The notes beneath the pieces are model-generated. The model did no database searches and was not told the DNA's origin. It saw only the letters and a program-made list of their open reading frames with translations. 64,000 bases of DNA from a virus (lineage: Duplodnaviria; Heunggongvirae; Uroviricota; Caudoviricetes), in the IMG/VR virus record IMGVR_UViG_3300011337_000358, one strand, 5' to 3'. The position numbers and the translations under genes were made by a program. Within the stretch, counting starts at the first letter, position 1. Each line of letters opens with the position of its first letter. This document shows, in pieces, positions 3,868 to 62,465 of this stretch.

Positions 3868-3947
3868 AGTAATTTTTTCTATATTTTGTAAATTTTTATG
3901 CCAAATGGAATAAATATATGTTCATCATATTTATTATCGGAGGACAG

Positions 3948-14095: not shown

Positions 14096-14096
14096 T

Positions 14097-24827: not shown

Positions 24828-25672
24828 GTCATTTAAAAGTATCAGAATTATTTTACAGTATCCAGGGAGAAGGTCGCTATATGGGAGTGCCAAGTATTTT
24901 CCTAAGAACATATGGATGCAATTTTACATGCGGTGGCTTCGGTATGCCTAAGGGAGAAATGAGTAATGAGAGAGATGTTATCGCAATTAAAGCAGAAGAT
25001 TATACAGATTATAAATCCTTACCACTTGTCAGTACTGGATGTGATAGTTACGCATCTTGGGACCCTCGCTTTAAACATCTTAGTCCTGTTATCTCTACCG
25101 ATTCTATTGCTGACAGTATTATGGATATACTTCCTCACAAGCGTTGGATGGATGAACATCTTGTTATTACAGGTGGTGAACCTTTGCTTGGATGGCAAAG
25201 AGCGTATCCAGACTTACTTTCAAACGAGAAAATGAGAGCATTGAAAGAGATTACATTTGAAACTAATGGCACACAAGAACTAAGTAAAGACCTTACTAAC
25301 TATCTTCATCAATGGAAGATCAGCCGTGAAAATAACGCACTTACATTCAGTGTGAGTCCTAAACTTAGTATCAGCGGTGAGAAGTGGGAAGAAGCAATAT
25401 GTCCACAAGTTGTTCGTCAATATGAAAGTGTTGGCTTTGTATATCTTAAATTTGTTATTGCTACTAAAGAAGATGCGATTGAGGCAGATAAAGCAGTTAA
25501 AGAATTTCGTACAGCTGGATTCAGAGGTCCAATATACTTCATGCCATGCGGTGGTGTAGAAAGTATCTATAATTTAAATGCTAGAAATGTTGCTATTGAA
25601 GCAATGAATCGTGGCTATCGCTATAGTGATAGATTACAGGTGCCTCTATTTAAAAATGAATGGGGGACATAA
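24824..25672 (+). CDS. queE: QueE-family radical SAM 7-carboxy-7-deazaguanine synthase
   Basis: 'ELFYSIQGEGRYMGVPSIFLRTYGCN' matches QueE 'EMFQTLQGEGYFTGVPAIFIRLQGC'. The Cys cluster 'GCNFTCGG' is atypical. Confidence 0.8.
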   Translation: MSHLKVSELFYSIQGEGRYMGVPSIFLRTYGCNFTCGGFGMPKGEMSNERDVIAIKAEDYTDYKSLPLVSTGCDSYASWDPRFKHLSPVISTDSIADSIMDILPHKRWMDEHLVITGGEPLLGWQRAYPDLLSNEKMRALKEITFETNGTQELSKDLTNYLHQWKISRENNALTFSVSPKLSISGEKWEEAICPQVVRQYESVGFVYLKFVIATKEDAIEADKAVKEFRTAGFRGPIYFMPCGGVESIYNLNARNVAIEAMNRGYRYSDRLQVPLFKNEWGT

Positions 25673-26105: not shown

Positions 26106-26285
26106 ATGTATGAATTAAGATATCTTGTCCGAAACGGTTGGGATGGACCTGAACAAGTGTTACAATATAGAACTCAACATGAAGTAACAGACTATAGTGG
26201 CACAGATCCTAAAACAGGTGGATTCATTAGAAAAATAGAATGGACTGAATGGAAGTATGTCCCCACCGTAGATGAAACAAAATGA
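26106..26285 (+). CDS. Hypothetical small protein (59 aa)
   Basis: ORF coupled to neighbours. Confidence 0.3.
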   Translation: MYELRYLVRNGWDGPEQVLQYRTQHEVTDYSGTDPKTGGFIRKIEWTEWKYVPTVDETK

Positions 26286-27631: not shown

Positions 27632-28458
27632 AAAAAGTTTTAATTACAGGTAACTCAGGTTACATTGGCAGTCATCTAAGTAAGATGTTAATGGATACAA
27701 TGAAATATGAAGTTCATGGATTAGATATCCGTGACCCGCAATATGCATTGAATAGATTTTATCGTCAAGATATCAATAGACAATTTTCATTAGATGAAGA
27801 ATTTGATGCAGTCATTCACTTAGCCGCATTAGTTAATGTAGGTGAAAGTGAACAGATACCCATTCAATATTATATCACTAACTTAAATGGCACAATGAAT
27901 GTCATTAACAAAGTAAAGACTAAAAACTTTATATTTGCAAGTACGGGTGCCGCAGTTGGTTGCGAAAGTGCTTATGGTATCAGTAAACGTGCCGCAGAAG
28001 ATGTAGTCAAAGAATACTGCACACATCACAATAAAAAAGATTATACTATCTTTAGATTTTATAATGTGATTGGTACTACCGTTGTTCCACCTACAAATCC
28101 AGATGGATTAATGTATAACTTAATGAAAGCACGTGAAACAGGTGAGTTTACTATCTTCGGTAATGACTATGACGTTAGTGATGACGGTACATGTGTGCGT
28201 GATTATGTACATGTGAATGAAATTTGTGACTCATTAGCACAGGCTATCGAAAAGCCTAGTAACCAAATTGAATCATTGGGTCACGGAGTGGGATGGACAG
28301 TTAAAGAGATTGTCGATGAGTTTCAAAAAGTCAATCACGTTGACTTTGAAGTAAAATACGGCCCAAGAAGAAAGGGTGATCTTGCTAGTTCTGTACTAGA
28401 AGATGTTTCACCCTATATGCGTAATCTATATACTATGGATGAGTTGCTTAAGGTTTAA
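27628..28458 (+). CDS. NAD-dependent epimerase/dehydratase (extended SDR; UDP-sugar 4-epimerase-like)
   Basis: Rossmann 'ITGNSGYIGSHL' and catalytic 'YGISK' (YxxxK). Confidence 0.75.
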   Translation: MKKVLITGNSGYIGSHLSKMLMDTMKYEVHGLDIRDPQYALNRFYRQDINRQFSLDEEFDAVIHLAALVNVGESEQIPIQYYITNLNGTMNVINKVKTKNFIFASTGAAVGCESAYGISKRAAEDVVKEYCTHHNKKDYTIFRFYNVIGTTVVPPTNPDGLMYNLMKARETGEFTIFGNDYDVSDDGTCVRDYVHVNEICDSLAQAIEKPSNQIESLGHGVGWTVKEIVDEFQKVNHVDFEVKYGPRRKGDLASSVLEDVSPYMRNLYTMDELLKV

Positions 28459-32822: not shown

Positions 32823-32851
32823 TTGACTTTATTGCGTAGTTGTGCTACACT
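32823..32851 (+). promoter_or_regulatory. Promoter TTGACT-17-TACACT for uvdE. The divergent region also carries rc 'GATAAATA' (32860-32867) for the minus-strand late operon.
   Basis: Hexamers; T4 late promoter consensus is TATAAATA. Confidence 0.5.
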
Positions 32852-32880
32852 GTATATATTATTTATCACTTTGGGCTTTT

Positions 32881-33909
32881 ATGTACACAAATCAATCAGT
32901 CAAACGTATCGGCTTTGCTTGCAAATGGGCAGAAATCAACAAGAAAGGTGAAATTGCTTCAGCCGAAGGTCTTAACACTGGCGGCACAACTCATGCTTGG
33001 GCAAAGCGTAATAGTCGTAATGTAGTAGAAGAAAAGATTATGGATGTTGCAAAACGCAATATTATGAATACACATGCACTAGTTAAACGTGTCGCTACAC
33101 TAGAACCACAATTACGTATGTTGCGTCTTACTAGCGATATGCTGAGTTTTTACACACTAGATGAATATAAAGGCTTTTGGCAAAGTAGTGATGTACAAAA
33201 CAGCTTGGCTCGATGGTTTGCCCCGATCGGGGAAACAGCACGTGCCAATGATGTTCGTCTTAGTTTTCACCCTGACCAGTTTGTAGTTTTAGCAAGCGAC
33301 CGTGAAGAAGTAGTAAATAAGAGTATTGAAGAATTTGAATATCATTGTGACATGGTTCGTTGGATGGGCTATGGCAAAGAGTTTCAAGACTTCAAAGTAA
33401 ATGTACATATCTCGGGACGTAAAGGCCCACAAGGCATCAGGGATGTGTACAACAGATTGTCGCCAGAAGCGAGAAACACACTAACACTAGAGAATGAGGA
33501 ATACACACATGGACTTACTGACTGCTTATCATTATCTGACCTCGTACCTACGGTCATGGACATACATCACAATTGGATTCGTGAGGGAGAATATATTTCC
33601 CCCAATGATGACAACGTTAAAAAGGTTATTGATAGTTGGCGCGGTATTAGGCCTACTTTACATTACTCCGTCAGCCGTGAAGATGTACTTGTCGGGCATT
33701 CCGGATCACAGTTACCCGATCATGGTGCGTTGATTGAATCTGGATACAGTAAGCAAAAACTTCGGGCACATAGTGATTACTATTGGAACGAAGCTGTGAA
33801 CGATTGGGCATTGACATTCATTGATAAATTTGATATGATGTGTGAATCGAAGGCAAAGAATCTTGCCAGCTTTAAATTATTAGAGAGATATAAATGTTTG
33901 ACAAAATAA
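32881..33909 (+). CDS. uvsE: UV DNA damage endonuclease (UvdE/UvsE) homolog
   Basis: The ordered blocks match B. subtilis UvsE: 'RIGFACKW' / 'RFGFVSNA', 'VRLSFHPDQFVVLAS' / 'LRTSFHPNQFTLFTS', 'VNVHISG' / 'INIHIGG', 'TLTLENEE' / 'RMTLENDD', 'DIHHNW' / 'DFHHF', 'RAHSDYV' / 'RSHADYV'. Promoter TTGACT-17-TACACT at 32823-32851. Confidence 0.8.
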   Translation: MYTNQSVKRIGFACKWAEINKKGEIASAEGLNTGGTTHAWAKRNSRNVVEEKIMDVAKRNIMNTHALVKRVATLEPQLRMLRLTSDMLSFYTLDEYKGFWQSSDVQNSLARWFAPIGETARANDVRLSFHPDQFVVLASDREEVVNKSIEEFEYHCDMVRWMGYGKEFQDFKVNVHISGRKGPQGIRDVYNRLSPEARNTLTLENEEYTHGLTDCLSLSDLVPTVMDIHHNWIREGEYISPNDDNVKKVIDSWRGIRPTLHYSVSREDVLVGHSGSQLPDHGALIESGYSKQKLRAHSDYYWNEAVNDWALTFIDKFDMMCESKAKNLASFKLLERYKCLTK

Positions 33910-50034: not shown

Positions 50035-50832
50035 ATGATTCGCTCTATTAAAATTGGTTTTGTTCTCACCGCAGTTGCACTGGTTAGTGCATGTACTCGC
50101 ATTGAGACTGGTGAGGTTGGTGTACGTGTTGGTTTTGATAAACAAGTGCAAAGTGGTGAACTCTTACCCGGCTCATTTAATCAAACCTTTATTGGTGACG
50201 TTCTTACATTTCCAATCAAAGACGTTAATGTTAAACTGGATGATATGACTCCAGTTGCTAAAGATAACAGCACCATGAAAGACTTTGATGCTGTGGTTAT
50301 CTATAACATCAATCAAGCACAGGTTGCTGAATTGTACTCAACTAAGAGTCAAGCATTCCACGCTCGGCATAACGGTGATATTTACTTGATGTACAACTAT
50401 ATTGTTCAAGCCACACGTAATGCTATCTACAAAGAAGCACGTAAGTATGAAGCACTGGATATGGCAGACAATCGCCAGGCTATGGAACAGGCAATTAAAG
50501 AACAAGTTCAAAAGTCACTAGCTGATGAAAAACTTGACGGTAGTTTAATTATTGGACAGGTATTGATTCGAAATATTGTACCTGCAGATTCAGTTGTTGC
50601 TAGTGCAAATGAGTTGGTTCGTGCTAAGAATGAATTGAAACAAAAAGAAGTTGAAGTTAAGACAGCAAAGATGGAAGCTGAACGTATGCAAGCATTGAGT
50701 AATCAAGGTGCTCAAAGTATTGCTTACATGCAAGCGCAGGCCATGATGAATATTTCTGAAGGTATTAAGAACGGCAAGGTGCAGACTATTGTTGTTCCAA
50801 GTAACTTCAATGCATTGATGATGAGCAGGTAA
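50035..50832 (+). CDS. SPFH/band-7 (HflC/prohibitin-like) domain lipoprotein
   Basis: Lipobox 'ALVSAC'. 'IETGEVGVRVGFDKQV' matches the SPFH N-terminal block. Long C-terminal coiled coil. A terminator follows. Confidence 0.65.
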   Translation: MIRSIKIGFVLTAVALVSACTRIETGEVGVRVGFDKQVQSGELLPGSFNQTFIGDVLTFPIKDVNVKLDDMTPVAKDNSTMKDFDAVVIYNINQAQVAELYSTKSQAFHARHNGDIYLMYNYIVQATRNAIYKEARKYEALDMADNRQAMEQAIKEQVQKSLADEKLDGSLIIGQVLIRNIVPADSVVASANELVRAKNELKQKEVEVKTAKMEAERMQALSNQGAQSIAYMQAQAMMNISEGIKNGKVQTIVVPSNFNALMMSR

Positions 50833-50840
50833 TAAAAATA

Positions 50841-50875
50841 GGGGAGATTCTCTCCCTTATTCCTTAATTTTTGAA
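50841..50875 (+). terminator. Rho-independent terminator after the SPFH gene
   Basis: 'GGGGAGATTCTCTCCC' hairpin followed by 'TTATTCCTTAATTTTT'. Confidence 0.6.
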
Positions 50876-50886
50876 AGGACCATATT

Positions 50887-52254
50887 ATGGTAACAATCGT
50901 TAAACATGAATGGCATCAACATGATAGACAATATGCTATTGAACTTGATGAAGCACTATTGAGTGAGATTTATCCCGACAAGGAAGAAGATGAGATTAAA
51001 GTAATACTAGATGGTATTGCTGATGGCACATATGATTATGAAGATGTTATTAATGATGCCTATGAGAATGACGTAGAGATTGAATGGGAGTTTCAGTATG
51101 ATGATTGTTGGACTGACCGCAAAGGTGGGTACGATGTTACATACGAACTAGGTGATGAAGATAGTTGGCATAGTGACCCGCCTCCACCAGAGCCTACTCA
51201 TAAGTGCACCAAATGTAAGTGGACTGGTCAGAGTTATGATGCTGAATGGGTGTGGCCCGATGAAGATGCTCCCGGCAAGCATGAGGCAAAGAAAGTCTGT
51301 CCTTACTGTGAAAGTGATGTTGAACTAACAGAAGCCGGTGTCATAGCAGAAAAAGAAAGTGCTGAACGTACAGCACGATGGGCTAAAGAAGCCAGTGATG
51401 CTGAGGAAGAAGTTCCTTGTTTCAGTTGTGGTGCAATGCACAAAGAAAGTGAACTACCTGAAATCAAAGAGAGTGGTTACTACTGTCCTGATTGCCATGA
51501 AGGTTGGGTTATGATGGAAGATCGGCCGACAGATGAAGAACCGGTTGATGAGGTTGAATTGGAACGAGCATTAGAAGAACTCAAAGCAGAGTTTGAAACA
51601 TTGACTGCGGATGATGATTCATTAAAAGAAAGTTATCCTGAAGATACATATACAATTCGTATCTGGGGTCGCACCCGTGAGATTGGTGTACATAAGATTA
51701 AGAAACAACAATACGACCATTGGAGTAGTGAAGAACACGAAGATGATTTGAGTGATGCTCTTAATGAGAACTATGACTATGATGAGAATGGTACTCCCAA
51801 AGCGGCAAGATTTGATTCTGCTTATTACGAGTACCAAGATAAGATTTCGTTCTGGGGTTTTGACCAAGATGATACACACATGACTATTGAAAATAGTGAA
51901 GGTGAAACAATATATGATGGTGATTTGGAATCATTCTTTGGCGAAGCACATGGTGAAGAAGATAGTCTATATGATACTACCGAAGAACAAGAAGAACTAT
52001 ATCCAGAATATCTTGGTAAAGGTTACTGGTTGATGTGGACACAAGGTGGTAAAGGATCTTGTATTCAAACTACTATTGAGGGTGTGTTTGAACCTAAGAA
52101 ACTTAAAGCACTTAACTGGGATATTCAGGGCACAAGTGTAGTTACACGATTAGTATATGACGGTGAAGAATTAAGTGATGATGGTATGGACAGTGAACAT
52201 GACAACTGGCGTGGTCAGTGGTCACAGTTTGATGTATATCATAATACAAAATGA
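50887..52254 (+). CDS. Acidic protein with two zinc ribbons, 'WEF.DD' family member 3
   Basis: 'VEIEWEFQYDDCW'; 'CTKCKW…CPYCESD'; 'CFSCGAMH…CPDCHEG'. Confidence 0.55.
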   Translation: MVTIVKHEWHQHDRQYAIELDEALLSEIYPDKEEDEIKVILDGIADGTYDYEDVINDAYENDVEIEWEFQYDDCWTDRKGGYDVTYELGDEDSWHSDPPPPEPTHKCTKCKWTGQSYDAEWVWPDEDAPGKHEAKKVCPYCESDVELTEAGVIAEKESAERTARWAKEASDAEEEVPCFSCGAMHKESELPEIKESGYYCPDCHEGWVMMEDRPTDEEPVDEVELERALEELKAEFETLTADDDSLKESYPEDTYTIRIWGRTREIGVHKIKKQQYDHWSSEEHEDDLSDALNENYDYDENGTPKAARFDSAYYEYQDKISFWGFDQDDTHMTIENSEGETIYDGDLESFFGEAHGEEDSLYDTTEEQEELYPEYLGKGYWLMWTQGGKGSCIQTTIEGVFEPKKLKALNWDIQGTSVVTRLVYDGEELSDDGMDSEHDNWRGQWSQFDVYHNTK

Positions 52255-52472
52255 CACCAGAACAATTAATACCCGGATTAAGCTATACGTTTGAAGATGG
52301 TAATAAGATTGAAATCATTCAAGTAAGAATGGTTGATGAACAAAGAGGTGGCCCATCAGTCACTTACTTTACTCATCAAGGTCGTGGCATACCTCAAAAG
52401 TTAATTATGCCTATGGAACCCTTCCTTGAATTGTATGGCCATCTATTCGAAGATAATCCACCCATAGAATAG
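52251..52472 (+). CDS. Hypothetical small protein
   Basis: ORF. Confidence 0.45.
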   Translation: MTPEQLIPGLSYTFEDGNKIEIIQVRMVDEQRGGPSVTYFTHQGRGIPQKLIMPMEPFLELYGHLFEDNPPIE

Positions 52473-52485
52473 ACTAAATACATAG

Positions 52486-54096
52486 ATGTTAAATAGAATA
52501 TTAAATTTTTCCAACCTCACATTATTAGTAGCACTGTCACTTAGTTCAGTAGCTGCCTGGTATAGTATCATAGGTCTAACTGCTATCTTTGCAGGTGCAG
52601 TTATTCCTGTTATCATCATGGGTAGTATCCTAGAAATAGGTAAGATTACTACTACAGTATGGCTACGTAAATACTGGCATCGTGCTGGATGGCTACTAAA
52701 ACTATACTTGGTTCCCGCCGTTATAGCATTGGCATTATTAACCAGCATGGGTATCTTTGGCTTCTTAAGCAAAGCACACATGGATCAAGGTATGATATCA
52801 GGTGACGTAATAGCTAAGATTGCAATATATGATGAAAAAATCAAAACCGAAAAAGAGAATATTGAAGCAAACCGTAAGGCACTTAAACAGATGGATGAGG
52901 GAGTGGACCAAGTACTGGGCCGCTCAACAACAGAAACGGGTGCAGAAAGAGCTGTGGCTATGCGAAAGTCCCAGCAGAAAGAGCGTACTCGACTTCAAAA
53001 TGAAATACTACAGTCGCAAAAGTCTATCGCGGAACTTAACGATGCACGTGCGCCTATTGCCGCCGAGGTACGTAAAGTCGAAGCAGAAGTTGGGCCAATT
53101 AAGTATATCGCCGCATTAATATACGGTGACAATACTGATGCGAACATGTTGGAAGCCGCAGTTCGTTGGGTTATTATTTTACTTGTTATTGTATTTGATC
53201 CATTAGCTATTGCACTTGTACTTGCGGCAAATGCAAGCAGAGAATGGGACGATGAAGAACCTAATAAAGAAGAACCGGCATATGAACCAGATGACGGACC
53301 ATTAACAGAAAATCAAATTGAACAAATAAAACAAAATGTTAATGATCTTGAGGTAACAACAGAAGAGGAAGAAGCGTTTAAATCGCTTGAACCAAAAGGT
53401 AGTGACCCTACAAATAACTGTTATTTGTGTGGTACTGAGTTAATCAATGCTCCCGGTATAGGTCCATTCTGTCCCAATAAGTCATGTAAGGTGATGGATA
53501 ATACAATGGGGGCAAACTGGGAAGTTATTAAACCGGAACCTGAAAAATCTTTATTAGAACAACATCCTTACTTAAATAAAGGATTTGACCATTTCAAAAA
53601 TCTAAAGCCAATGGTTACGTCAACTAATAAGATAGTTCCAGAAATAACGGAACTTACAGTTGACTCAACTAAGCCAATTGATGTTGTAACTGAGGGTGTT
53701 ACTATTCCCAAACCGTTTAAAGAATTAGAAGGTGGTTATGTAACATTTGAAGGTAAACACATGCACCGTGATGTGTTAATGGGTAATCATCCCGAAGTAT
53801 TTAAATTAGTAGCAGATTCCGCAAGATCAGCTAATACTAGTTTTGGAACTGAATTCCCAAAAATAGCAGAAAAAGGTGATTCTTTTGTTCGGGTAGATGT
53901 ATTGCCAAACCGTGTGTATAAGTTTGATGGAACTAGATGGATTATCGTAAATAAGGATGTATCCAAAAGTTATTTACATGACCAAGAATATATAAAATAT
54001 CTCATAACTAAAATAGACAATGGTGAGTATGATATTGAATTATTGAGTGATTCCGAAAAACAGCAAATTGAAGAACACTTGACCAAAAAGTCTTGA
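52486..54096 (+). CDS. Membrane protein (N-terminal multi-TM) with coiled coil and zinc ribbon
   Basis: Hydrophobic N-terminal 110 aa plus 'IILLVIVFDPLAIALVLAA'; 'CYLCG…CPNKSC'. Confidence 0.55.
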   Translation: MLNRILNFSNLTLLVALSLSSVAAWYSIIGLTAIFAGAVIPVIIMGSILEIGKITTTVWLRKYWHRAGWLLKLYLVPAVIALALLTSMGIFGFLSKAHMDQGMISGDVIAKIAIYDEKIKTEKENIEANRKALKQMDEGVDQVLGRSTTETGAERAVAMRKSQQKERTRLQNEILQSQKSIAELNDARAPIAAEVRKVEAEVGPIKYIAALIYGDNTDANMLEAAVRWVIILLVIVFDPLAIALVLAANASREWDDEEPNKEEPAYEPDDGPLTENQIEQIKQNVNDLEVTTEEEEAFKSLEPKGSDPTNNCYLCGTELINAPGIGPFCPNKSCKVMDNTMGANWEVIKPEPEKSLLEQHPYLNKGFDHFKNLKPMVTSTNKIVPEITELTVDSTKPIDVVTEGVTIPKPFKELEGGYVTFEGKHMHRDVLMGNHPEVFKLVADSARSANTSFGTEFPKIAEKGDSFVRVDVLPNRVYKFDGTRWIIVNKDVSKSYLHDQEYIKYLITKIDNGEYDIELLSDSEKQQIEEHLTKKS

Positions 54097-54121
54097 ACAA
54101 AACTCCAGTTTAGTATATAAT
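54093..54121 (+). promoter_or_regulatory. Promoter TTGAAC-17-TATAAT for the lipoprotein
   Basis: Hexamers. Confidence 0.5.
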
Positions 54122-54151
54122 AATAACATTATTAACTAACTGGAGTTTCCA

Positions 54152-54784
54152 ATGAAAAAACTAATTGTTTGTGCAACTGTACTAGCCTTAACTGGTTGCG
54201 GCAATTTTGGTAAAAAATCTGATGAGCATGAACCAATTCGCAATCAGAAACTTTCAACCTCTTTTAAAAATGATACAATCCGTATTGAAACAGATTGTGT
54301 TTGGTATAAGCCATGGAAAAGTGATTGTGATGTGACTTCAATCGAAGCTACCGCAACTGCTAGTGCTAACGGCAATACTGATTCAAATCGCCGTACTGCG
54401 TTGATTCGTGCAGGTGATCGTGCTAGGGCTAGTGTTCGTCATTTTATTCAAGAAGACTTGAATAGTACCCGAACTCAGTCTACACTTGCCAAGAATGTAG
54501 AGAAAGCAAGTGATAGAATGAAATCATCTACTGTCAATGGCGAGACGGTAGCAATTAGTGATACTGATGCTGAAAAGGATTCAAGCCATAGTATTCGCAC
54601 TAATAGCAATGATACTGCATATCAATTACAAGAATCTATTCGTGTTAATGCAAGTGGCATTTTGCGTGGATTCAGGGTAGTAAAACAAGAAGTTATTGGT
54701 GGGCAAGAAGTTAGTGTAACGATTCGCTGGGATAAAGATTCCGAAAATACTGCTAATCTTTTGCGTAAAAAATTCGGTAATTAA
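54152..54784 (+). CDS. Lipoprotein (210 aa)
   Basis: Lipobox 'LALTGCG'. Promoter TTGAAC-17-TATAAT at 54093-54121. Confidence 0.6.
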   Translation: MKKLIVCATVLALTGCGNFGKKSDEHEPIRNQKLSTSFKNDTIRIETDCVWYKPWKSDCDVTSIEATATASANGNTDSNRRTALIRAGDRARASVRHFIQEDLNSTRTQSTLAKNVEKASDRMKSSTVNGETVAISDTDAEKDSSHSIRTNSNDTAYQLQESIRVNASGILRGFRVVKQEVIGGQEVSVTIRWDKDSENTANLLRKKFGN

Positions 54785-54787
54785 AAA

Positions 54788-55753
54788 ATGAGACTGCTGT
54801 TAATAGCGGTTTGTTTATTCTTTACAAATGCATTTGCTGGTGACTATACTAGAGTGGTAGGGCACGGGCCTAACATTGAGACTGCAAAAGAAAATGCATT
54901 TCGTGAAGCAATAATGATTCGTGTAGGTACCGTTGTACTTAGTGAGCGTGAATCTACTATAAACAATCTAAAACGTGATGACATTTCTGTGTACAGCGCC
55001 GGCTATGTTAATGATTACAAAATCATTTCAGTAGAAAGATATGGATCAACAGTTAAAGTAACAGTTGATGTGTTAGTTGCTGATAGTAAACTTGTCAATC
55101 AACGATTAAATTCAGGTACTACAATTAATACTATCAACGGTGATAATGCATTTACCAATTACAAAACCTTTATTGACCAAAAACTTAAAGCTGATAGATT
55201 AATCAAATCAGTCTTATCATCCTATCCCAACAATGCTTATATAGTAGAGCAATCACCTTATCAAATAGGTGTTGATTCTTTTCGCAATGCTATACTAACA
55301 GTTCAATATAAGTTAAAGTGGAACTATGATTATATCATTGCCTTTAATGAATTAATGTCATTAGTAGAAGATAGTAAGTATGGCATGCTAGAACATGCAC
55401 CTAGTAATGTCATCATTCTAGGTAAAAATCCCAAAGATTTTGTTTTAGGTGAAAAGAAGCATTATAAATTTAGTGATATCCTTTTGTTAGATAGAATTAA
55501 AGACTCAATGACATACGGGAGAGAAGTAAAGTTAAAATTGTCAATGAGTGATATTAATTTTAACAATTTAATTTCTCAATGTTTTAACGTGAACAAAACT
55601 TATTTTTCAGTTGGCAATCCTAGAAGTCTGGTGTTATACGGGAATACTAAAGAAGAAGGGGTATTGCAATTACGTATCCCAGTAGAGTATAATAACGTTA
55701 TACAACGAGCAAGCAACATACAAGTATCGGTTGTTCCATACAATCAATGTTAA
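54788..55753 (+). CDS. Secreted protein (signal peptide)
   Basis: 'MRLLLIAVCLFFTNAFA'. Confidence 0.55.
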   Translation: MRLLLIAVCLFFTNAFAGDYTRVVGHGPNIETAKENAFREAIMIRVGTVVLSERESTINNLKRDDISVYSAGYVNDYKIISVERYGSTVKVTVDVLVADSKLVNQRLNSGTTINTINGDNAFTNYKTFIDQKLKADRLIKSVLSSYPNNAYIVEQSPYQIGVDSFRNAILTVQYKLKWNYDYIIAFNELMSLVEDSKYGMLEHAPSNVIILGKNPKDFVLGEKKHYKFSDILLLDRIKDSMTYGREVKLKLSMSDINFNNLISQCFNVNKTYFSVGNPRSLVLYGNTKEEGVLQLRIPVEYNNVIQRASNIQVSVVPYNQC

Positions 55754-55789: not shown

Positions 55790-56995
55790 ATGACCTCTGA
55801 ATCTAAACTAAACCATTGTTCCTTTTGTGGCAATCACAAAGATAAAGTTACTAAACTTATCGTAAGCGAAGATGTTGCTATTTGTAGTGACTGTATTGAA
55901 TTATGCAACCAATTAGTTATTGATGAACTTGTAACCAGTGAATCGGCTAATGTAAAAGAAAACACCATTAATGACCCTCATTTAATTAAAGAGTACCTGG
56001 ATGAGCATGTAATTGGACAAGATTCTGCTAAAACAGTACTGAGTGTGGCTATTGCTAATCATTATAAACGCATTACCTATCCACCAAAAGACTTAGAAAT
56101 TTCTAAAGGTAATGTCTTAATTATTGGGCCTACTGGATCAGGTAAAACACTATTAGCTAAAACAGTAGCAAAATACTTAAATGTACCTTTCATTGTTGCT
56201 GATGCTACTAGTTTAACTGAAGCAGGGTATGTGGGTGATGATGTTGAATCAATGATTAGTATGCTTGTTAATGCCGCAGGTGGAGATCCTAAACTAGCAG
56301 AACGTGGTATTGTGTTTGTTGATGAAATTGATAAGATTGCACGTAAGAGTGAGGGTACTAGTATTACCCGTGACGTATCAGGTGAGGGTGTTCAACAGGC
56401 GTTATTGAAATTAGTTGAAGGCACCGTGTGTCGTATTCCAGCTAGTGGCGGACGCAAACATCCCGGTGGTGATATGCTAGAAATTAATACAAAAAATATA
56501 TTGTTCATTGCAGGTGGGGCATTTGTTGGATTAAAAGAAATTATTTCTAATCGTAAAAACGGTACCAGTATTGGATTTGGGGCAAATATTAAAGAAAATA
56601 AAAAAGAAGGTGAACTAAGCCAAGTAACTCCTGACGATTTGACTAAGTTTGGTATGATTCCTGAGTTTATCGGCCGCTTTACTACTACAGTTAGCATTGG
56701 TGAATTGGGGAAAGATGAGTTAAAACAAATATTAACTTCCGTTAAAAACAATTACATCAAGCAATATCAATATCTATTAAGTATTGATGGTATTGAATTG
56801 AACTTTGAAGATGGTGCTTTGAATCAAATTGTAGATAATTGCTTGAAATTAAAGACCGGAGCACGTGGATTACATACTGAAATTGAACGTGTATTGATGC
56901 CACATATGTTTAATGTCAACAAGTATAAGGAAAATAACGTAAAAGTGATAAATATAAGTCAGGACGCAGTTATAGAACCAAAAATTATGTTATGA
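55790..56995 (+). CDS. clpX: ClpX ATP-dependent protease unfoldase subunit
   Basis: N-terminal C4 zinc-binding domain 'CSFCGN…CSDCIELC'. Walker A '[11 protein letters not shown]'. Length 401 aa. Confidence 0.9.
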
Positions 56996-57213
56996 GTATT
57001 AAAGGAAGACGAGTTATTGTACAAGACGGGAATTTTGAAAAAGCATTACGCAAATTCAAAAAGAAGATATCCGACCTGGATTTATTACAAGAAGTTCGTG
57101 ACCGTCAACAATATGTTAAACCTACTGTTAAACGCAAACTAGCAAAAAGCCAAGCTAAACGTAGATGGCAAAAATATCTACGTGACCAAAGTCTACCCAA
57201 GAAACTTTTTTAA
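56992..57213 (+). CDS. rpsU: Ribosomal protein bS21 (RpsU) homolog
   Basis: '[41 protein letters not shown]' matches E. coli S21 '[41 protein letters not shown]'. Length 73 aa. Confidence 0.85.
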
Positions 57214-57261
57214 CCTAAATATTATAATTTATTGCGTATTAGTAGTATAATAAATACATAC

Positions 57262-57313
57262 GTAGATGCCGATAATCGGGTCTACATATAGTCATCTTGC
57301 TTAATAAAGGAGA
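57262..57313 (+). promoter_or_regulatory. Candidate ROSE-like RNA thermometer in the Hsp20 5'UTR
   Basis: Nested hairpin 'GTAGATGCCGATAATCGGGTCTAC' followed by 'UUGCU' (57297-57301) positioned to pair with SD 'AGGAG' (57308-57312), with the G·G mismatch typical of ROSE elements. Confidence 0.4.
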
Positions 57314-57319
57314 AAACAA

Positions 57320-57772
57320 ATGACAAAAACTTTAACCCTTCGTTCCCTCGACATTCCGTCGCTTCATAAATTTGGTATCGGTTTCGATTCAATGTTTGAT
57401 GAATTGCACAGAATTCATTCTCAACAATCCAACACAAACTATCCCCCATATAACATAGTCCAAATTAATGAGGACGAGTATATGATTAGTGTAGCTGTAG
57501 CTGGATTTGGTCTTGATAATCTTTCAATAACAAAAGACAAAAACTTTTTGATTATTGAAGGGAAGGAATATCAATCTGATAGCGAAGAAATCATACCAAA
57601 CTATCTACACAAAGGTATTAGCAACAGAGACTTCCGTCGTGAATTCAAACTTGCAGACCACGTAGAGATAGTGGATGCAAATTTAGAATTGGGTATCCTC
57701 AACGTTCATTTAAAACGTGAAGTTCCTGAAGAACAAAAGCCCAAGTCTATTGCAATTACTTATACTAAGTGA
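57320..57772 (+). CDS. Small heat-shock protein Hsp20/alpha-crystallin family (IbpA-like)
   Basis: 'FRREFKLADHVEIVDANLELGILNVHLKRE' is the alpha-crystallin domain C-terminal block. Confidence 0.85.
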   Translation: MTKTLTLRSLDIPSLHKFGIGFDSMFDELHRIHSQQSNTNYPPYNIVQINEDEYMISVAVAGFGLDNLSITKDKNFLIIEGKEYQSDSEEIIPNYLHKGISNRDFRREFKLADHVEIVDANLELGILNVHLKREVPEEQKPKSIAITYTK

Positions 57773-57795
57773 TATAATAGAATTTCAATAAATAA

Positions 57796-57817
57796 GTGTG
57801 CGGGGTAACTCGCACAC
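57796..57817 (+). promoter_or_regulatory. Stem-loop (GTGTGCG-N8-CGCACAC) in the clpS leader, after a TGATATAAT extended -10
   Basis: 7-bp perfect inverted repeat. Confidence 0.35.
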
Positions 57818-57832
57818 AACTTAAATAAAATT

Positions 57833-58138
57833 ATGTCCAAAACTGATACTAAAGTAAAAATCAAACCTAATCTCGCTTTAAGAGAGCCGCCCTTGTTTAA
57901 AATCATTTATTTCAATGATGATGTTACAAGTCTGGAATTTGTTGTGGGAAGTTTAATTGATTATTTTAATTATAATCAGGATACTGCTACTTCTATTAGT
58001 GAAAATATTCATCATCAAGGAAGTGCTGTGGTTGCAGTACTACCTTATGAAATTGCAGAGCAAAAAGGCATCGAAGTTACACTAGAAGCTAGAAGCCAAG
58101 GTTACCCGCTTCAAGTTAAGATTGAAGCTGAAGTTTAA
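57833..58138 (+). CDS. clpS: ClpS adaptor protein
   Basis: 'PLFKIIYFNDDVTSLEFVVGSL' matches E. coli ClpS '[23 protein letters not shown]'. Confidence 0.85.
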   Translation: MSKTDTKVKIKPNLALREPPLFKIIYFNDDVTSLEFVVGSLIDYFNYNQDTATSISENIHHQGSAVVAVLPYEIAEQKGIEVTLEARSQGYPLQVKIEAEV

Positions 58139-58836
58139 ATAGTTATTTCAATTCGTTTAGCCCAATAAGGGTTTCGATTGTAATATGAATTGTTGATGTA
58201 GTTGATACCATTAATAGTGGTATCAACTACTTTTCCATATGTGCCATAGACCCAATTAGTTACTTTACTTTCGGTATCATATGTTAAAGTAATTCCCAAA
58301 CTTAGTTGATTTTTTACTGATTCCGGTTGTTCTTTAAAATACAAATCTACACTAGGCACAGAGTTAGATACTAATATAATTTTTTTAACATCTAAGTGTT
58401 TTTGTAATCGTTCAACCGTATTTTTAAGATATAGTATATCTTCATTCCTGTGTTGTTCAATTAATGCTTCTGTCGTTGCATCAGATGGTATAGTATTTCC
58501 GTACCATCCATTTGCTCCAGCTAATGCAATGCCATCAACAATTACCACATGATGGTGCATCACTGCAACATTTTTTATGGTTTGACATAGTTTATGAATT
58601 TCGTTGGTTCGTGCTTCTATATCAGACGTTTGATGATATTCAGTAGAACCTAAGGTATAGAAAATACCCTGATAAAACCTAGACAGATGCAATAGAGTTT
58701 GCCTAATTGTGCGTAAATCACTACTAATATTACCTGCAATAATGAGGTATAAACTAGTTGCTTTGCCTTCCCAATTAAAACTACTTTCGGGTGACAAATT
58801 TAAGTCACTGATTACGTCAAACCCTATTGTTGTCAT
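58135..58836 (-). CDS. Hypothetical protein, possibly a degenerate calcineurin-like metallophosphoesterase
   Basis: 'VISDLNL' (DxH-like with H→N), 'IIAGN', 'MHHHVVIVDG'. Weak. Confidence 0.35.
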   Translation of the reverse strand: MTTIGFDVISDLNLSPESSFNWEGKATSLYLIIAGNISSDLRTIRQTLLHLSRFYQGIFYTLGSTEYHQTSDIEARTNEIHKLCQTIKNVAVMHHHVVIVDGIALAGANGWYGNTIPSDATTEALIEQHRNEDILYLKNTVERLQKHLDVKKIILVSNSVPSVDLYFKEQPESVKNQLSLGITLTYDTESKVTNWVYGTYGKVVDTTINGINYINNSYYNRNPYWAKRIEITI

Positions 58837-58839
58837 CAG

Positions 58840-59094
58840 TTATTTTGCTACGCTAATTTTTGGCTTTCTTGGTGCCTTTGGCTTAGCAGGTGCTTTAGCT
58901 TTTGGGGCAGCCGGTCCTCGGGCGGCGGCTGTGCGAGCCGGAGCTTTTGGCTTAGCTGGTGCTTTTTCAGCAACCGGGGCAGGTGTTTCCACTTTTGCCG
59001 GTTCAACCGCTTTTGGTGCTTCTACTTTGTACGGGGCGGGCGCCTCGACTGGTTTAGCTGAAAAGCCAAATAAACGCTTGATAAAGTCTATCAT
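58840..59094 (-). CDS. Small basic Ala/Lys/Pro-rich histone-H1-tail-like protein
   Basis: 'APKAVEPAKVETPAPVAEKAPAKPKAPARTAAARGPAAPKAKAPAKPKAPRKPK'. Confidence 0.5.
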   Translation of the reverse strand: MIDFIKRLFGFSAKPVEAPAPYKVEAPKAVEPAKVETPAPVAEKAPAKPKAPARTAAARGPAAPKAKAPAKPKAPRKPKISVAK

Positions 59095-59175
59095 TTCTAT
59101 CTCCTAAACATATATTTACTCGGGTTTGAACCATAAACATTTTTTCCTTAAGTATATGAAGTTTCCAAAAGTTAA

Positions 59176-59685
59176 GTGTATCATAAATACATGATGTTCA
59201 GAAAAGCCAATCTTGCCGAACTTATGCGTGAGGAGTTGCCTCCGATAGCATACCAAAAACGCCTTTGTTACAGGACCGACCGTGACGAAGTTGTAATGCT
59301 TTATCGTCTAATTAATAAGACAATTTTTGACAACAAATTAAAGATGCCAGAGATTGAAGTTATGGCACGATGCCGTAAATATTGGGGAATGTGCTATGGG
59401 TCATACGAAACACCCACAAAAAACAAAAGCTCCTGCAAGATTAGAATGATGGACAAATGGTACTGTCGGCAATGGCTTATTACAGTATTAGCACACGAAA
59501 TGTGCCATCAATATCAATGGGATGTGCAGGGTATAGAACGTAGAAAGATCGGAAAAGATCCTATTATGAGTCATGGTCCTAGCTTCTTTGTATTCAGAGA
59601 TAAATTAAAGAAGAATGGAATCTCATTAAAAAGCGCACATGGCCGCAAACGTTGGTTCAAACATCAAAACTTCTTTAAGTGCTAA
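59176..59685 (+). CDS. SprT-like zinc metalloprotease domain protein
   Basis: 'VLAHEMCHQYQW' matches the SprT 'HEMCH' signature. Confidence 0.6.
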   Translation: MYHKYMMFRKANLAELMREELPPIAYQKRLCYRTDRDEVVMLYRLINKTIFDNKLKMPEIEVMARCRKYWGMCYGSYETPTKNKSSCKIRMMDKWYCRQWLITVLAHEMCHQYQWDVQGIERRKIGKDPIMSHGPSFFVFRDKLKKNGISLKSAHGRKRWFKHQNFFKC

Positions 59686-59689
59686 CATT

Positions 59690-59697
59690 GATAAATA
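59690..59697 (+). promoter_or_regulatory. T4 late-promoter-like motif 'GATAAATA' ~20 nt upstream of the capsid-targeted protein gene
   Basis: 7/8 match to TATAAATA. Same motif in front of the minus-strand capsid-targeted operon. Confidence 0.4.
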
Positions 59698-59715
59698 CTT
59701 CATAGGTATATTATT

Positions 59716-61140
59716 ATGAGAGCACTAGAATTTTTAACTGAAGCCCCACTTACACCAGGAAACTTATTTGACCCTCGTCACTTAAACTGGAGACCACAAA
59801 ACTTTCTTAAAAAGTTAGAAGCAGGGACACCGTTCGTAGATAAATCCGGTAATAAGTATTACCCGGAAGATGGAGAATTTGAAAGAATTACTCCTATCGT
59901 TACTCAAATATTACAACAGTTAGAAAAACAACCTAACGCCCCTCTACCAAGTATCAGCATCAATATGAAAGATGTTGGTCCTGTTTCATTGAGCAAATTA
60001 GAAAAAGCAGATTTGCAAACAGCAGGTGGACAGTTTACTAGTGACGTTAATGTACAACCATTAGGTATTGGTATTGCGGCTGATCCTATCAATAAACCCG
60101 GCACAAAGCCTGCTGATAAAATAACAATGACAACTGATGAAGAAATTCAGGCTGCATTGGACAAACATCAAGAAATTAAAGCTGGTCAATTGTATGAGGT
60201 TATCATGTCTAATAAGACACTTGACCAAGCAGGAGAGTTGGGTAAAGCAATCAAGCAAGCCGCAACTGAAATGAATAATAATCAAGTACCTATTATTAAA
60301 CAGTATGCGGAATCAGTACAAAAGAAAATCGCAATTGATGCAGGTGAATATTTAGGTGTATTGGCAATGGTCAAAGATGTTGCTGACTTTCCCAAAAAAG
60401 CCGCATTCTTAAACTTTCTACGTGCAAATGATTTTGAAAATTTATCAATTATTTTTCCCGGAGAACAGAACTCTCCATTAGGTGACAGTTACGGTGTACA
60501 AAATGCAGAAACTGGTCATAATATTGTTATCAGTAGCAAAGGTGGTAAGGGTAGTACGGCATCTGGCGCCGCCCCTAGCCTAGGAGGTTTAAAGACTTCT
60601 GTTGACAAACGTGCATCGAAGATTAGAAAAGGTAACGGACTCGATTTTATTAATCATATTATTCAAGTTAGTCCAACTTCAGCGCAAGGCTTTGCAGGTA
60701 TTAATTGGATTGCAAATAATTATCCAGAATCAGTGCCAGACAAATATAAAAATTTAGTTCCATTCTACAGCGAAGATGTGAAACAAATATTGAAAAACAT
60801 TCGCACAAAGGGCGCAGAACCTATTCCAGAAAAGTTCTTATCATTAATCAGTGCTCCTAGTATTCAAGCAAGTAAAGGTACTGATGGTGGTAAGTTAGTA
60901 TATGTTGTAACTAAAGATTTGGTGAGTGCCATCAATGCAGGTATCATTAAAAACTTTAGAACTACTGTGTTAGAACTATTAGATGAGAACTTTGTTCAAA
61001 TCTTCTCACGCATTATTGGTGGCAAACTTGTTACCAAAGTATTGTGGCCAGGTAAAGTTGATGGCAATGTATCGTTGCATACTAAGATTTCTCCGGGAGA
61101 TCCAGGTGGTGCAGGATTAAGTTTCAAGGTTACCGATTAA
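59716..61140 (+). CDS. Internal-protein-like protein (474 aa) with capsid-targeting N-terminus
   Basis: N-terminus 'MRALEFLTE|A', paralogous to the minus-strand block N-termini. Upstream 'GATAAATA' at 59690-59697 is late-promoter-like. Confidence 0.55.
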   Translation: MRALEFLTEAPLTPGNLFDPRHLNWRPQNFLKKLEAGTPFVDKSGNKYYPEDGEFERITPIVTQILQQLEKQPNAPLPSISINMKDVGPVSLSKLEKADLQTAGGQFTSDVNVQPLGIGIAADPINKPGTKPADKITMTTDEEIQAALDKHQEIKAGQLYEVIMSNKTLDQAGELGKAIKQAATEMNNNQVPIIKQYAESVQKKIAIDAGEYLGVLAMVKDVADFPKKAAFLNFLRANDFENLSIIFPGEQNSPLGDSYGVQNAETGHNIVISSKGGKGSTASGAAPSLGGLKTSVDKRASKIRKGNGLDFINHIIQVSPTSAQGFAGINWIANNYPESVPDKYKNLVPFYSEDVKQILKNIRTKGAEPIPEKFLSLISAPSIQASKGTDGGKLVYVVTKDLVSAINAGIIKNFRTTVLELLDENFVQIFSRIIGGKLVTKVLWPGKVDGNVSLHTKISPGDPGGAGLSFKVTD

Positions 61141-61152
61141 CACTAAAATCAA

Positions 61153-61181
61153 TTGACTTTGACATAAACTTCCGTTATAAT
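61153..61181 (+). promoter_or_regulatory. Promoter TTGACT-17-TATAAT for clpP
   Basis: Hexamers. Confidence 0.6.
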
Positions 61182-61209
61182 AGTGGAAACATTTATATAA
61201 AGGAAGTTT

Positions 61210-61797
61210 ATGTCTCTAGTCCCAATGGTTCTTGAACAAACAGCAAAAGGTGAGCGTAGCTATGATATCTACAGCCGCCTATTACGTGACCGTGTTATTT
61301 TACTTGAAGGTGAAGTGCATGACCAAATGGCAAATCTTATCGTTGCCCAATTGCTTTACTTAGAAAGTGAAAGCGACAAAGATATCTCAATGTACATCAA
61401 TAGCCCAGGTGGTAGTGTGACTGCTGGTATGGCAATATATGATTGTATGCAATTTGTTAAACCTGACATTCACACTATTGTAATGGGTCAAGCCTGTTCA
61501 ATGGGGTCATTACTTGCACAAGCAGGCAGTGCAGGCAAACGATTTATGTTGCCCAATGCACGACATATGATTCACCAACCAAGTGGTGGCGCACGTGGTA
61601 TGCAAAGTGACATTGAAATCAGTTACAAAGAAATCACATACTTGAAAAAACGTCTAACTGAAATTTATGTTAAGCATAACTCAGCCGGCAAATCATACGA
61701 AGATTTTGAACGTGACATGGATCGTGATAAGTTTATGAGTGCTGAGGAAGCTTTGGCCTACGGACTTATTGACAAGATTGTTGAAAAGCGCCAGTGA
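61210..61797 (+). CDS. clpP: ClpP protease proteolytic subunit
   Basis: '[17 protein letters not shown]', catalytic Ser '[10 protein letters not shown]', His 'MIHQPSGG'. Promoter TTGACT-17-TATAAT at 61153-61181. Confidence 0.9.
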
Positions 61798-62465
61798 TTA
61801 AATTTATCCCCGTACCTGTAAATGAGCATGATGCAATATTGGGTAGTAACTTTAATCAATTATTTGCCCAAGAAATGCAGTCATACTATTCACCTTTCGT
61901 TGCCAAGAACAGAGATATTCAGGTAGCAAAAGAGACATGGGAGTATGCTGTTGCTGATAGCATACTTAACTCTGAGTGGTGCGGGGCAGGAAAAAACGTA
62001 GTAGATGTTAAAGCACCTATAGCAGACCTAGATGTTAAGGGTATTAGTATCGGGGTGATTACTGACAGCCAAACGACAGAAGCCAGTTTCTTACAGAATA
62101 ACAAACAAGAAAACGATGGTTTTAGTAAATTGTTTGAGAACAAAGATTTTTTAGCATTAAAGCAAATGTTTGTCGATCCAATGGATGACAAAATAAAGGG
62201 CACTAACAATTTACATTTGCTTAGTATCATCAGAGAAAAATCCACTAGGAAAGTATATTATTGTTTACTTAAGGTGGAATCCAGCACAATATCCGATATT
62301 GATTTTCTATCACAAATGACTATCGATGGAAAACGTAGCGTGACATTACCTATGATCGATCCTACACACGGAAAAACATACATCTACATAGCCAAACGAA
62401 GACTGGAAATTCGGTTGAACGGGGAGGGCCTGACACCGTTCTTGGTCTATTCCCATAGCTACTGA
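61794..62465 (+). CDS. Hypothetical protein
   Basis: ORF coupled to clpP. Confidence 0.5.

Follow-up and report, generated by a model that had tools for sequence, protein, structure and literature searches.

The window analysed here is a 64-kb stretch (64,000 nucleotides) of the Caudoviricetes record IMGVR_UViG_3300011337_000358 in IMG/VR, and between positions 55790 and 61797 it carries genes for the unfoldase ClpX, the ribosomal protein bS21 (S21), Hsp20 (a small heat-shock protein), the adaptor ClpS and the peptidase ClpP. The clustering of these five genes is not a matter of chance. They probably form a conserved auxiliary block of uncultivated huge phages, serving proteostasis plus translation, whose net effect would be a general remodelling and maintenance of the infected-cell protein pool. 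As judged by alignment, both the ClpX and the ClpP of the block are canonical, with intact motifs for hydrolysing ATP, gripping substrates, docking onto ClpP and cleaving peptide bonds. An earlier reading of the same DNA, made without database searches (the original prediction), had proposed a phage that brings its own degradation machinery. In this general sense it agrees with our results, since the phage appears to bring functional versions of ClpX, ClpP, ClpS, the small heat-shock protein and bS21 in one conserved block. The five genes are as follows (lengths in amino acids, aa):

55790-56995, plus strand: clpX, AAA+ unfoldase, 401 aa (NCBIfam NF003745 and Pfam domains)
56992-57213, plus strand: rpsU-like gene for ribosomal protein bS21, 73 aa (TIGR00030 and Pfam)
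57320-57772, plus strand: hsp20, IbpA-like small heat-shock protein (holdase), 150 aa (Pfam HSP20 and phrog_432)
57833-58138, plus strand: clpS, N-degron adaptor of ClpA/ClpC-type unfoldases, 101 aa (Pfam ClpS)
61210-61797, plus strand: clpP, canonical S14 serine peptidase, 195 aa (Pfam, NCBIfam and alignment)

Gene identities were scored with Pfam, PHROGs and NCBIfam models, using each model's own cutoff, and these scores together with alignments upheld the coordinates and identities that had been proposed for all five. The original gene list was incomplete, as it omitted a SprT-like gene (59176-59685) and two minus-strand genes (58135-58836 and 58840-59094). The full plus-strand order in the interval is ClpX, bS21, Hsp20, ClpS, SprT-like, a 474-aa protein and ClpP, with the two minus-strand genes placed between ClpS and the SprT-like gene.

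The conservation of this arrangement was traced by scanning IMG/VR with ClpX and ClpS, which returned hundreds of relatives (ClpX identity 72-92%, contigs up to 524 kb). We fetched 150 loci, mapped all window proteins onto them, and collapsed duplicates to 84 distinct loci holding both ClpX and ClpS; genes further downstream were counted only in the 55 loci with at least 6.5 kb of sequence after ClpS. The order ClpX, Hsp20, ClpS on one strand was found in every one of the 84 distinct loci, with S21 between ClpX and ClpS in 70 of them. ClpP lay downstream in 55 of 55 loci, at 3.4 to 7.4 kb from ClpX (median 5.4 kb), and the SprT-like gene was recovered in 41 of the 55. Order and orientation are kept while protein identity across the 84 loci ranges from 45 to 95%. 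A very abundant clade of uncultivated huge phages, in other words, keeps a tightly packed protein-quality-control set together with a ribosomal protein. We found no earlier report of the compact, conserved ClpX-S21-Hsp20-ClpS-ClpP arrangement in the literature searched.

Some relatives carry insertions in the block. A full-length DnaK (Hsp70, 632-648 aa) is encoded between S21 and Hsp20 in 28 of the 150 related loci, for example at 11479-13425 of locus L033 and 12292-14190 of locus L048, so that the block there reads ClpX-S21-DnaK-Hsp20-ClpS. Open reading frames (ORFs) resembling HNH and GIY-YIG homing endonucleases also interrupt it in some relatives (11390-12202 of L048, plus strand; 11953-12633 of locus L031, minus strand).

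The ClpX protein passes the NCBIfam equivalog model NF003745 with 524 bits against a cutoff of 359 and TIGR00382 with 499.9 against 370.75, and contains the Pfam domains zf-C4_ClpX (47.7 against 27), AAA_2 and ClpB_D2-small. Alignment to the solved Escherichia coli ClpX (8e91) places the C4 zinc finger at C10, C13, C32 and C35, Walker A at residues 113-120, Walker B at D178/E179 and the sensor-2 arginine at R359. The same alignment, which the original prediction had suggested as a check on the pore loops, locates the pore-1 GYVG loop at 146-149, the RKH loop at 222-224 and the ClpP-docking IGF loop at 261-263. Among 85 distinct homologues the AAA+ motifs are invariant and the four zinc-finger cysteines at least 90% conserved. 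The canonical GYVG and RKH loops and zinc finger suggest ordinary recognition of ClpX degrons. The idea that the phage machinery has its own substrate selection consequently loses ground, as the parts of ClpX that contact substrates are the canonical ones.

ClpX might instead act chiefly as a chaperone that remodels phage replication or assembly complexes, as cellular ClpX does with λ O and MuA, with ClpP secondary. This function was proposed by the authors of the Atu_ph07 and AP-J-162 papers, in whose phages clpX lies near topoisomerase genes (PMC6102473, PMC11242549), and the region of the window also carries a family-B DNA polymerase (PolB), a DNA ligase, a 5'-3' exonuclease and UvdE. However, clpX in the window's clade is flanked by lipoprotein and membrane-protein genes upstream and by rpsU and chaperone genes downstream, not by replication genes, and both the retention of the IGF loop and the presence of ClpP in 55 of 55 loci argue for a working protease. 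We consider a mainly replicative or morphogenetic role improbable, and a general proteostasis function remains the better account of ClpX.

The bS21 protein scores 58.4 bits with TIGR00030 (cutoff 28.95) and 57.6 bits with Pfam, and among solved structures it is matched best by bacterial bS21 chains that are 71 aa long and of E. coli type. Together with the strong AGGAG ribosome sites of the window, this E. coli-type bS21 argues against a host among the Bacteroidota. Its gene is joined to clpX in the manner that the original prediction described as translational coupling. The string ATGTTATGA is present at the junction, where the clpX stop codon TGA (56993-56995) overlaps the rpsU start codon ATG (56992-56994) in a shared ATGA of 4 nucleotides (56992-56995). 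This overlap is conserved in 111 of 118 related loci, and no separate Shine-Dalgarno (SD) sequence was seen before rpsU. No earlier report of a conserved clpX-rpsU coupling was found in the literature searched.

The ClpP protein matches Pfam PF00574 (CLP_protease) over residues 13-193 with 265 bits against 20.2 and passes the NCBIfam subfamily model NF001368 (304.4 against 249), falling just below the stricter equivalog TIGR00493 (289 against 308.6). It aligns end to end with solved ClpPs and is 57-62% identical to cellular ClpPs over its full length. The catalytic triad, the absence of which the original prediction had named as grounds for abandoning it, is present as S97 (in GQACSMG), H122 (in MIHQP) and D173 (in RDKF), and is invariant in 74 distinct homologues. 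The protein starts with MSLVPMV, aligned to the N-terminus of the 193-residue E. coli ClpP chains 1tyf and 1yg6, and therefore has no propeptide. An identical ClpP occurs on a 17.5-kb metagenome contig of the Joint Genome Institute and in five Logan assemblies.

The suggestion that this homologue serves as a prohead (head-maturation) protease has some support from annotation: PHROGs places it in phrog_94, 'head maturation protease', with 168 bits, and the Atu_ph07 homologue bears the same label in RefSeq. The PHROGs label reflects the lumping of S14 peptidases in that library. The NCBIfam model for ClpP-related head-maturation proteases, NF045542, was failed (102.6 against 120) while the canonical ClpP model was passed, and the protein is partnered with an IGF-bearing ClpX and retains its full-length identity to cellular ClpPs. 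Furthermore, it has no scaffold or capsid fusion, its nearest nameable ORFs are not structural genes, and none of the window ORFs that were scanned could be identified as encoding a capsid, portal or scaffold protein. Atu_ph07, for its part, encodes a separate prophage Clp protease-like protein (PMC6102473). A prohead role, which the original prediction offered as an alternative, is thus highly improbable, and ClpP is best regarded as the proteolytic partner of ClpX.

The start of clpP carries two superimposed signals:

61153-61181, plus strand: σ70-type promoter of clpP, TTGACT (61153-61158), a 17-nucleotide spacer and TATAAT (61176-61181), with 11 of 12 consensus matches
61161-61214, plus strand: long hairpin at the clpP start (fold energy and helix conservation)

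The 5' arm of the hairpin, GACATAAACTTCC (61161-61173), lies within the promoter spacer and is the perfect complement of the 3' arm, GGAAGTTTATGTC (61202-61214), which comprises the SD sequence and ATG of clpP, so that the stem has 13 base pairs. The leader RNA folds with -30 kcal/mol (z -6.5). Across 18 related loci that share this promoter, pairing of the helix reaches 84%, as compared to 30-56% when it is slid, and compensatory changes occur at two pairs, a C-G to U-A replacement and an A-U/U-A swap tied to a TCT/AGT serine codon. Since the predicted start point of the promoter lies inside the hairpin, transcripts from clpP's own promoter would lack the 5' arm. Read-through transcripts would hide the clpP ribosome site and transcripts begun at the internal promoter would not. 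We found no earlier report of a promoter-in-hairpin at clpP in the literature searched. An Rfam mir-3204 match on both strands (61147-61230) was rejected, as it only reflects the clpP palindrome.

Promoters of this type are frequent in the window. Sites within one mismatch of TTGACA-17-TATAAT number 20 against 1.4 expected, almost all on the coding strand, and the T4-type late promoter TATAAATA is depleted (2 against 9 expected), so that the region gives no sign of T4-type late-promoter control. The σ70-type promoter of clpP suggests expression by host RNA polymerase. Several σ70-type promoters share an extended consensus, TTGACAATAAATGGnTTTGGGTATATAAT, before small genes (plus strand; 44612, 44949, 45272, 62469, 62841, 63573, 63910 and others). 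These sites look like an early-gene promoter family.

ClpS matches Pfam PF02617 with 79.8 bits against 23 but falls below the cutoffs of all nine NCBIfam ClpS equivalogs (best 74.7 against 149), which makes it a diverged member of the family. Its N-degron pocket residues N28, D29, T32 and H60 correspond to N34, D35, T38 and H66 of E. coli (alignment offset of 6; residue roles in PMC8346999) and are invariant in 78 homologues. The gatekeeper, M40 in E. coli, is Leu34 here and varies within the clade. A 19-residue N-terminal extension (residues 2-20) precedes the core and ends in a Pro19-Pro20 junction, with EPP conserved. ClpS is known to depend on an N-terminal extension that is unstructured, counts 14 residues or more and has a Pro junction; the adaptor binds the ClpA N-domain, the ClpA pore engages the extension, and N-degron substrates are passed on to ClpAP (PMC8666677). 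A weak candidate promoter precedes the gene:

57750-57778, plus strand: σ70-like promoter candidate before clpS, TTGCAA-17-TATAAT with an upstream TG (10 of 12 consensus matches; weak alone)

The original prediction had treated ClpS as the adaptor of ClpXP, a tempting misreading that these results correct. ClpS serves ClpA and ClpC (PMC8666677), and a tblastn search with a phage ClpC-like protein (locus L200) and the ClpB-like protein of Atu_ph07 located neither ClpA nor ClpC in the window or in the flanks of the 150 loci. The sole window ORF longer than 600 aa encodes the DNA polymerase. The Atu_ph07 protein listed as ClpB/ClpA (661 aa) is without a Clp_N domain. The ClpC-like protein of L200, which has the N-domain, occurs in other IMG/VR huge phages; for neither this protein nor that of Atu_ph07 did the best 80 loci include one on a contig carrying the block. 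A tblastn search of deposited phages for a ClpA/ClpC partner added nothing for this clade. The most economical explanation is the published one, in which phage ClpS hijacks the host ClpAP (PMC7824862), although a viral partner may be encoded in the genome beyond the 64 kb and flanks covered here. A rewired ClpS that feeds N-degron substrates to the phage's own ClpXP is conceivable on the indirect grounds that clpX, clpS and clpP stand together in every locus examined and that no ClpA/ClpC gene was found in the block. If true, ClpS would be paired with ClpX for the first time, and a virus would have an N-degron pathway complete in itself, but we hold this to be very unlikely and retain docking on a host unfoldase as the favoured function of ClpS.

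Hsp20 scores 53.8 with Pfam HSP20 (cutoff 20.8) and 123.9 with the NCBIfam IbpA equivalog (cutoff 212). Its best family is the phage family phrog_432 (140.6 bits), and its best solved match is 7ck4, followed by Salmonella AgsA. Two features precede the gene:

57232-57256, plus strand: conserved box TTGCGT-N8-TATAATAAATA upstream of the hsp20 leader, seen in many related loci
57262-57324, plus strand: ROSE-like leader of hsp20 (Rfam ROSE_3 match and covariation)

The leader has two hairpins. Hairpin I (57262-57285) has the form GUAGAU-G-CCGA/UCGG-GUCUAC with a bulged G, and its core, GAUGCCGA...UCGGGUC, is identical to the ROSE_3 family consensus. In hairpin II the anti-SD CUUGCU (57296-57301) pairs with the SD AGGAG (57308-57312), 8 nucleotides before the ATG. 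A possible lower stem would join GUCAU (57291-57295) to AUGAC (57320-57324) and cover the start codon (84% paired, weak covariation). Rfam ROSE_3 matches positions 57260-57325 over the full model with 30 bits (E 0.0037 in 7 kb, 7e-5 locally). Over 60 distinct leaders, 99.8% of the alignment cells of hairpin I are paired and seven of its nine pairs show compensatory changes, against 38-53% pairing in slid controls, and UUGCU...AGGAG...ATG precedes hsp20 in 136 of 142 related loci.

The same leader motif was scanned for in bacteria, taking one genome per species. Of the 120 loci recovered, mostly from Pseudomonas, Azotobacter and Stutzerimonas, 87 had it directly upstream of a gene for an Hsp20 homologue, which shares 36-41% identity with the phage protein. 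For the short ROSE-like ibpA thermometers of Pseudomonas, experiments have shown that a shift from 25 to 42 °C induces expression 4- to 6-fold (PMC3669281). The same two hairpins precede hsp20 in the cultured phages Atu_ph07 (ROSE_3 28 bits; locus L151, 27671-27735, minus strand) and Phosso (locus L435, about 3940-4003, plus strand), with compensatory differences between the leaders, and the thermometer idea is consequently testable in Agrobacterium or Sinorhizobium. No report of a phage-borne ROSE-type element was found in the literature searched.

Two other signals near the leader were considered. The TTGCGT-N8-TATAATAAATA box is possibly a phage-specific promoter; its spacing does not fit σ70, and we rejected it as a recurrent promoter class because it occurs only once in the window. 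A weak Rfam 'freshwater-2' match covers 57243-57322 (plus strand), and the 3' end of that motif, AAGGAGAAAAcAAAUG, fits the hsp20 ribosome site. We did not accept membership of that family, as the score is only 23.4 bits against 49.9, though the freshwater-2 motif may itself derive from phages of the window's kind.

Taken together, these features are consistent with a sequence of events in which phage ClpX and ClpP would assemble as ClpXP, possibly with host subunits, and add to the capacity for unfolding and degrading proteins, selecting degrons as ClpX ordinarily does. Phage ClpS would bind an unfoldase of the ClpA/ClpC type, most likely that of the host, by docking on its N-domain, and switch that protease from its normal clients to proteins whose N-terminal residue is Phe, Leu, Trp or Tyr. 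The small heat-shock protein would hold unfolding proteins, next to a phage DnaK encoded beside it in some relatives. Made in step with ClpX by termination-reinitiation at the ATGA, bS21 may enter host 30S subunits and favour initiation on SD-rich phage mRNAs. Translation of hsp20 would be gated by the ROSE-like leader through pairing of UUGCU to the SD, and clpP would be translated only from transcripts begun by host RNA polymerase at its own σ70-type promoter. The outcome would be that, in a large and long infection, the massive output of phage protein is kept under quality control and host protein is turned over, with no single anti-defence target. Three regulatory hypotheses are added by this scheme, namely a thermometer-type leader on a viral chaperone, stop-start coupling of rpsU to clpX and a promoter-in-hairpin on clpP.

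A targeted counter-defence or takeover function, in which phage ClpXP and a ClpS-steered ClpAP mainly destroy particular host defence or regulatory proteins, draws on some of the same evidence. The patchy peptidases (ClpP, SprT-like) and ClpS of jumbo phages were proposed to be deployed against host proteins (PMC7824862), and the σ70-type promoter of clpP suggests transcription by unmodified host RNA polymerase early in infection. We saw no phage-specific adaptor or altered recognition loop, however, as GYVG, RKH, the zinc finger and the ClpS pocket are all canonical. The companions of the protease are general chaperones (Hsp20 and, in relatives, DnaK), and the block is universal in the clade, not patchy as arms-race genes usually are. 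We regard dedicated counter-defence as unlikely, if less so than the other alternatives, and prefer general maintenance of the protein pool.

Several observations weigh against this preferred interpretation. Its functional steps beyond gene identity are inferred from sequence, and the host ClpA is an assumed partner of ClpS. No ClpA-, ClpC- or ClpB-like gene was present in the window or in the ±10 kb flanks of the 150 loci, so that the phage has no visibly self-contained N-degron pathway. ClpS, Hsp20 and ClpP all score below NCBIfam equivalog cutoffs and are diverged from their cellular orthologues. S21 is missing from 14 of the 84 loci and SprT from 14 of the 55, and neither can therefore be essential to the block. 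The ROSE_3 score of the hsp20 leader, 30 bits, is below the Rfam gathering score of 43; its SD hairpin (II) never varies, and covariation consequently cannot test it. When the partition function of this leader was computed with ViennaRNA at temperatures from 5 to 42 °C, the pairing probability of the SD stayed flat at about 0.6; the validated P. putida leader was likewise without a melting trend, so that the scan is uninformative. Finally, the clpP hairpin is limited to a sub-clade of about 18 sequences and its covariation is modest.

The rest of the window indicates, by similarity of its proteins, that it comes from a huge phage of a clade related to the Atu_ph07/Phosso/Rak2 group of T4-like jumbo phages. 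Its PolB is a T4-type family-B polymerase (phrog_262, 658 bits) whose nearest counterparts belong to Sinorhizobium phage Phosso (49%) and to Agrobacterium phage Atu_ph07 (46%), followed by Rak2-like Klebsiella and Escherichia jumbo phages. The closest ClpPs among deposited phages are likewise those of Phosso (66.5%) and Atu_ph07 (64.4%). The window also encodes an ATP-dependent DNA ligase, a 5'-3' exonuclease, UvdE and radical-SAM proteins. No near-identical DNA was found among deposited phages, and the window has no tRNAs and no Rfam families at gathering thresholds. 'Moraphage' (PMC12619734) was set aside as a relative, being of a different lineage with Bacteroidota hosts.

We also asked whether the stretch could be bacterial DNA mis-assigned to a phage, with Clp, Hsp20 and S21 as ordinary cellular genes. 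All five proteins have close cellular counterparts, and several 'phage' database matches for ClpP and ClpX are short unannotated records that may themselves be host DNA. Against this stand the T4-type PolB nearest to Phosso and Atu_ph07 on the same contig, the related loci on IMG/VR contigs of 300-524 kb, the identity of only 37-62% found to cellular-type ClpX, ClpP and Hsp20, and the homing endonucleases that interrupt the block in relatives. Cellular clp genes are arranged as tig-clpP-clpX-lon and clpS-clpA, and the order in the window resembles neither. A bacterial origin is therefore extremely unlikely, and we treat the block as a phage one.

Four other genes lie between clpS and clpP:

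58135-58836, minus strand: convergent gene, 233 aa, predicted calcineurin-like metallophosphoesterase fold (AlphaFold2 and Foldseek)
58840-59094, minus strand: Lys/Ala/Pro-rich small ORF, 84 aa (no Pfam, PHROGs or NCBIfam match)
59176-59685, plus strand: SprT-like zinc metalloprotease with H107-E108-x-x-H111 (Pfam SprT-like, 34.1 against 25.6)
59716-61140, plus strand: 474-aa protein, variable filler of the block (no Pfam, PHROGs or NCBIfam match; detected in about 25 related loci)

The convergent 233-aa gene is present in 55 of the 55 loci with enough flank. Public metagenomes contain 950 protein clusters homologous to its product, not one of which has a Pfam domain, and a profile search against PDB sequences gave nothing significant. 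The structure was modelled from database homologues with AlphaFold2 (predicted local distance difference test 85, predicted template-modelling (TM) score 0.86), and Foldseek matched the model to PptH, Dbr1, Rv0805 and Mre11 with TM 0.5-0.69. By eye, its canonical metal-binding motifs look degenerate. The 84-aa ORF was detected in a minority of related loci; its homologue in L031 has 109 aa and a hydrophobic N-terminus. H107, E108 and H111 of the SprT-like protein are invariant in 57 homologues.

The flanks of the block contain further genes. Downstream, the GTG start of a 223-aa ORF (61794-62465, plus strand) overlaps the clpP stop, and only few relatives have this ORF. About 860 bases past the 3' end of the window (locus L001, 13650-14039) a 129-aa ORF has a borderline Ribosomal_L12 C-terminal domain (26.2 against 25.9). 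The region upstream of clpX (50035-55753) encodes an SPFH/Band-7 protein (50035-50832), a 455-aa protein with a weak DUF7564 match, a 536-aa membrane protein and two proteins whose N-termini resemble secretion or lipoprotein signals. Most relatives conserve the 455-aa and 536-aa proteins beside clpX, and many also conserve the two with signals. Other cargo of the window (1398-2675, 24824-25672, 26282-28458 and 32842-33909) comprises radical-SAM proteins, a glycosyltransferase-like ORF beside an NAD-dependent epimerase, and the UvdE UV-endonuclease.

When compared to known systems, the window ClpX, ClpP and ClpS keep all the defining motifs of the E. coli ClpXP and ClpAPS machines, and their best solved matches are bacterial. 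They differ from the cellular system in that the window is without ClpA, ClpP is without a propeptide and the ClpS gatekeeper Met40 is replaced by Leu. The arrangement at clpP recalls the lysozyme gene e (and soc) of T4, in which a promoter lies inside a hairpin that sequesters the ribosome-binding site. The logic is similar, but the internal promoter of T4 is a late promoter whereas that of clpP is of σ70 consensus, known here from its sequence and in a sub-clade only. The hsp20 leader resembles the ROSE-like leaders of Pseudomonas ibpA in having two hairpins before an IbpA-type gene, an identical core (GAUGCCGA/UCGGGUC with a bulged G) and a U(U/C)GCU anti-SD that pairs with the SD in hairpin II (PMC3669281). 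It differs in being borne by a phage, in a shorter and A/U-rich hairpin II, and in the possible extra stem over the AUG.

The bS21 of the window is of normal length, as are those described in large freshwater phages by Chen et al. 2022 (PMC9723584), who, looking up to ten genes away from phage bS21, counted Hsp20 (n=127) and two Clp protease families (n=50 and 47). The five clades of that study have Bacteroidota hosts, and their bS21 gene stands among those for capsid, portal and terminase on the reverse strand, whereas the window gene is co-directional with clpX and translationally coupled to it, in a genome region that uses strong AGGAG SD sites.

The gene content of the block and its general interpretation are already known from published jumbo phages, and the novelty implied by the original prediction was overstated. 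The same set is found in Atu_ph07 (PMC6102473) and AP-J-162 (PMC11242549) and is described generally in a survey of jumbo phages (PMC7824862). Attai et al. 2018 listed ClpX, ClpP, ClpS, ClpA and ClpB in Atu_ph07 and discussed ClpS as a modulator of ClpAP (PMC6102473). The AP-J-162 paper reported S21, L7/L12 and initiation factor 3 (IF3), with clpX adjoining IF3 and the L7/L12 protein near both (PMC11242549). The Rak2-like ('group 2.2') jumbo phages Atu_ph07, Phosso and AP-J-162, the last a Sinorhizobium phage like Phosso, share with the window the families ClpX, ClpP, ClpS, Hsp20, SprT-like peptidase, S21 and L7/L12-like protein, at only 40-66% protein identity. Their gene order is looser. In Atu_ph07, ClpX is followed by IF3, five small genes, Hsp20, thymidine kinase and then ClpS, and ClpP stands about 22-27 kb away from ClpS/ClpX; in Phosso the order is Hsp20, thymidine kinase, ClpS, a ribosome recycling factor is encoded nearby, and ClpP lies hundreds of kb from ClpX. 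Thymidine kinase therefore separates Hsp20 from ClpS in the cultured phages, and IF3 follows clpX in Atu_ph07 and AP-J-162 where S21 does so in the window. The Atu_ph07 gene directly after clpX (locus L152, 244-747, minus strand) is a bona fide IF3 with IF3_N and IF3_C domains; it occupies the same position as bS21, and both proteins act in 30S initiation. Whereas the genes of the cultured phages are spread out, those of the window fall within 6 kb with rpsU joined to clpX by the ATGA. The same order, in looser form, in cultured relatives indicates that the block is old in the lineage and was compacted in the clade of the window.

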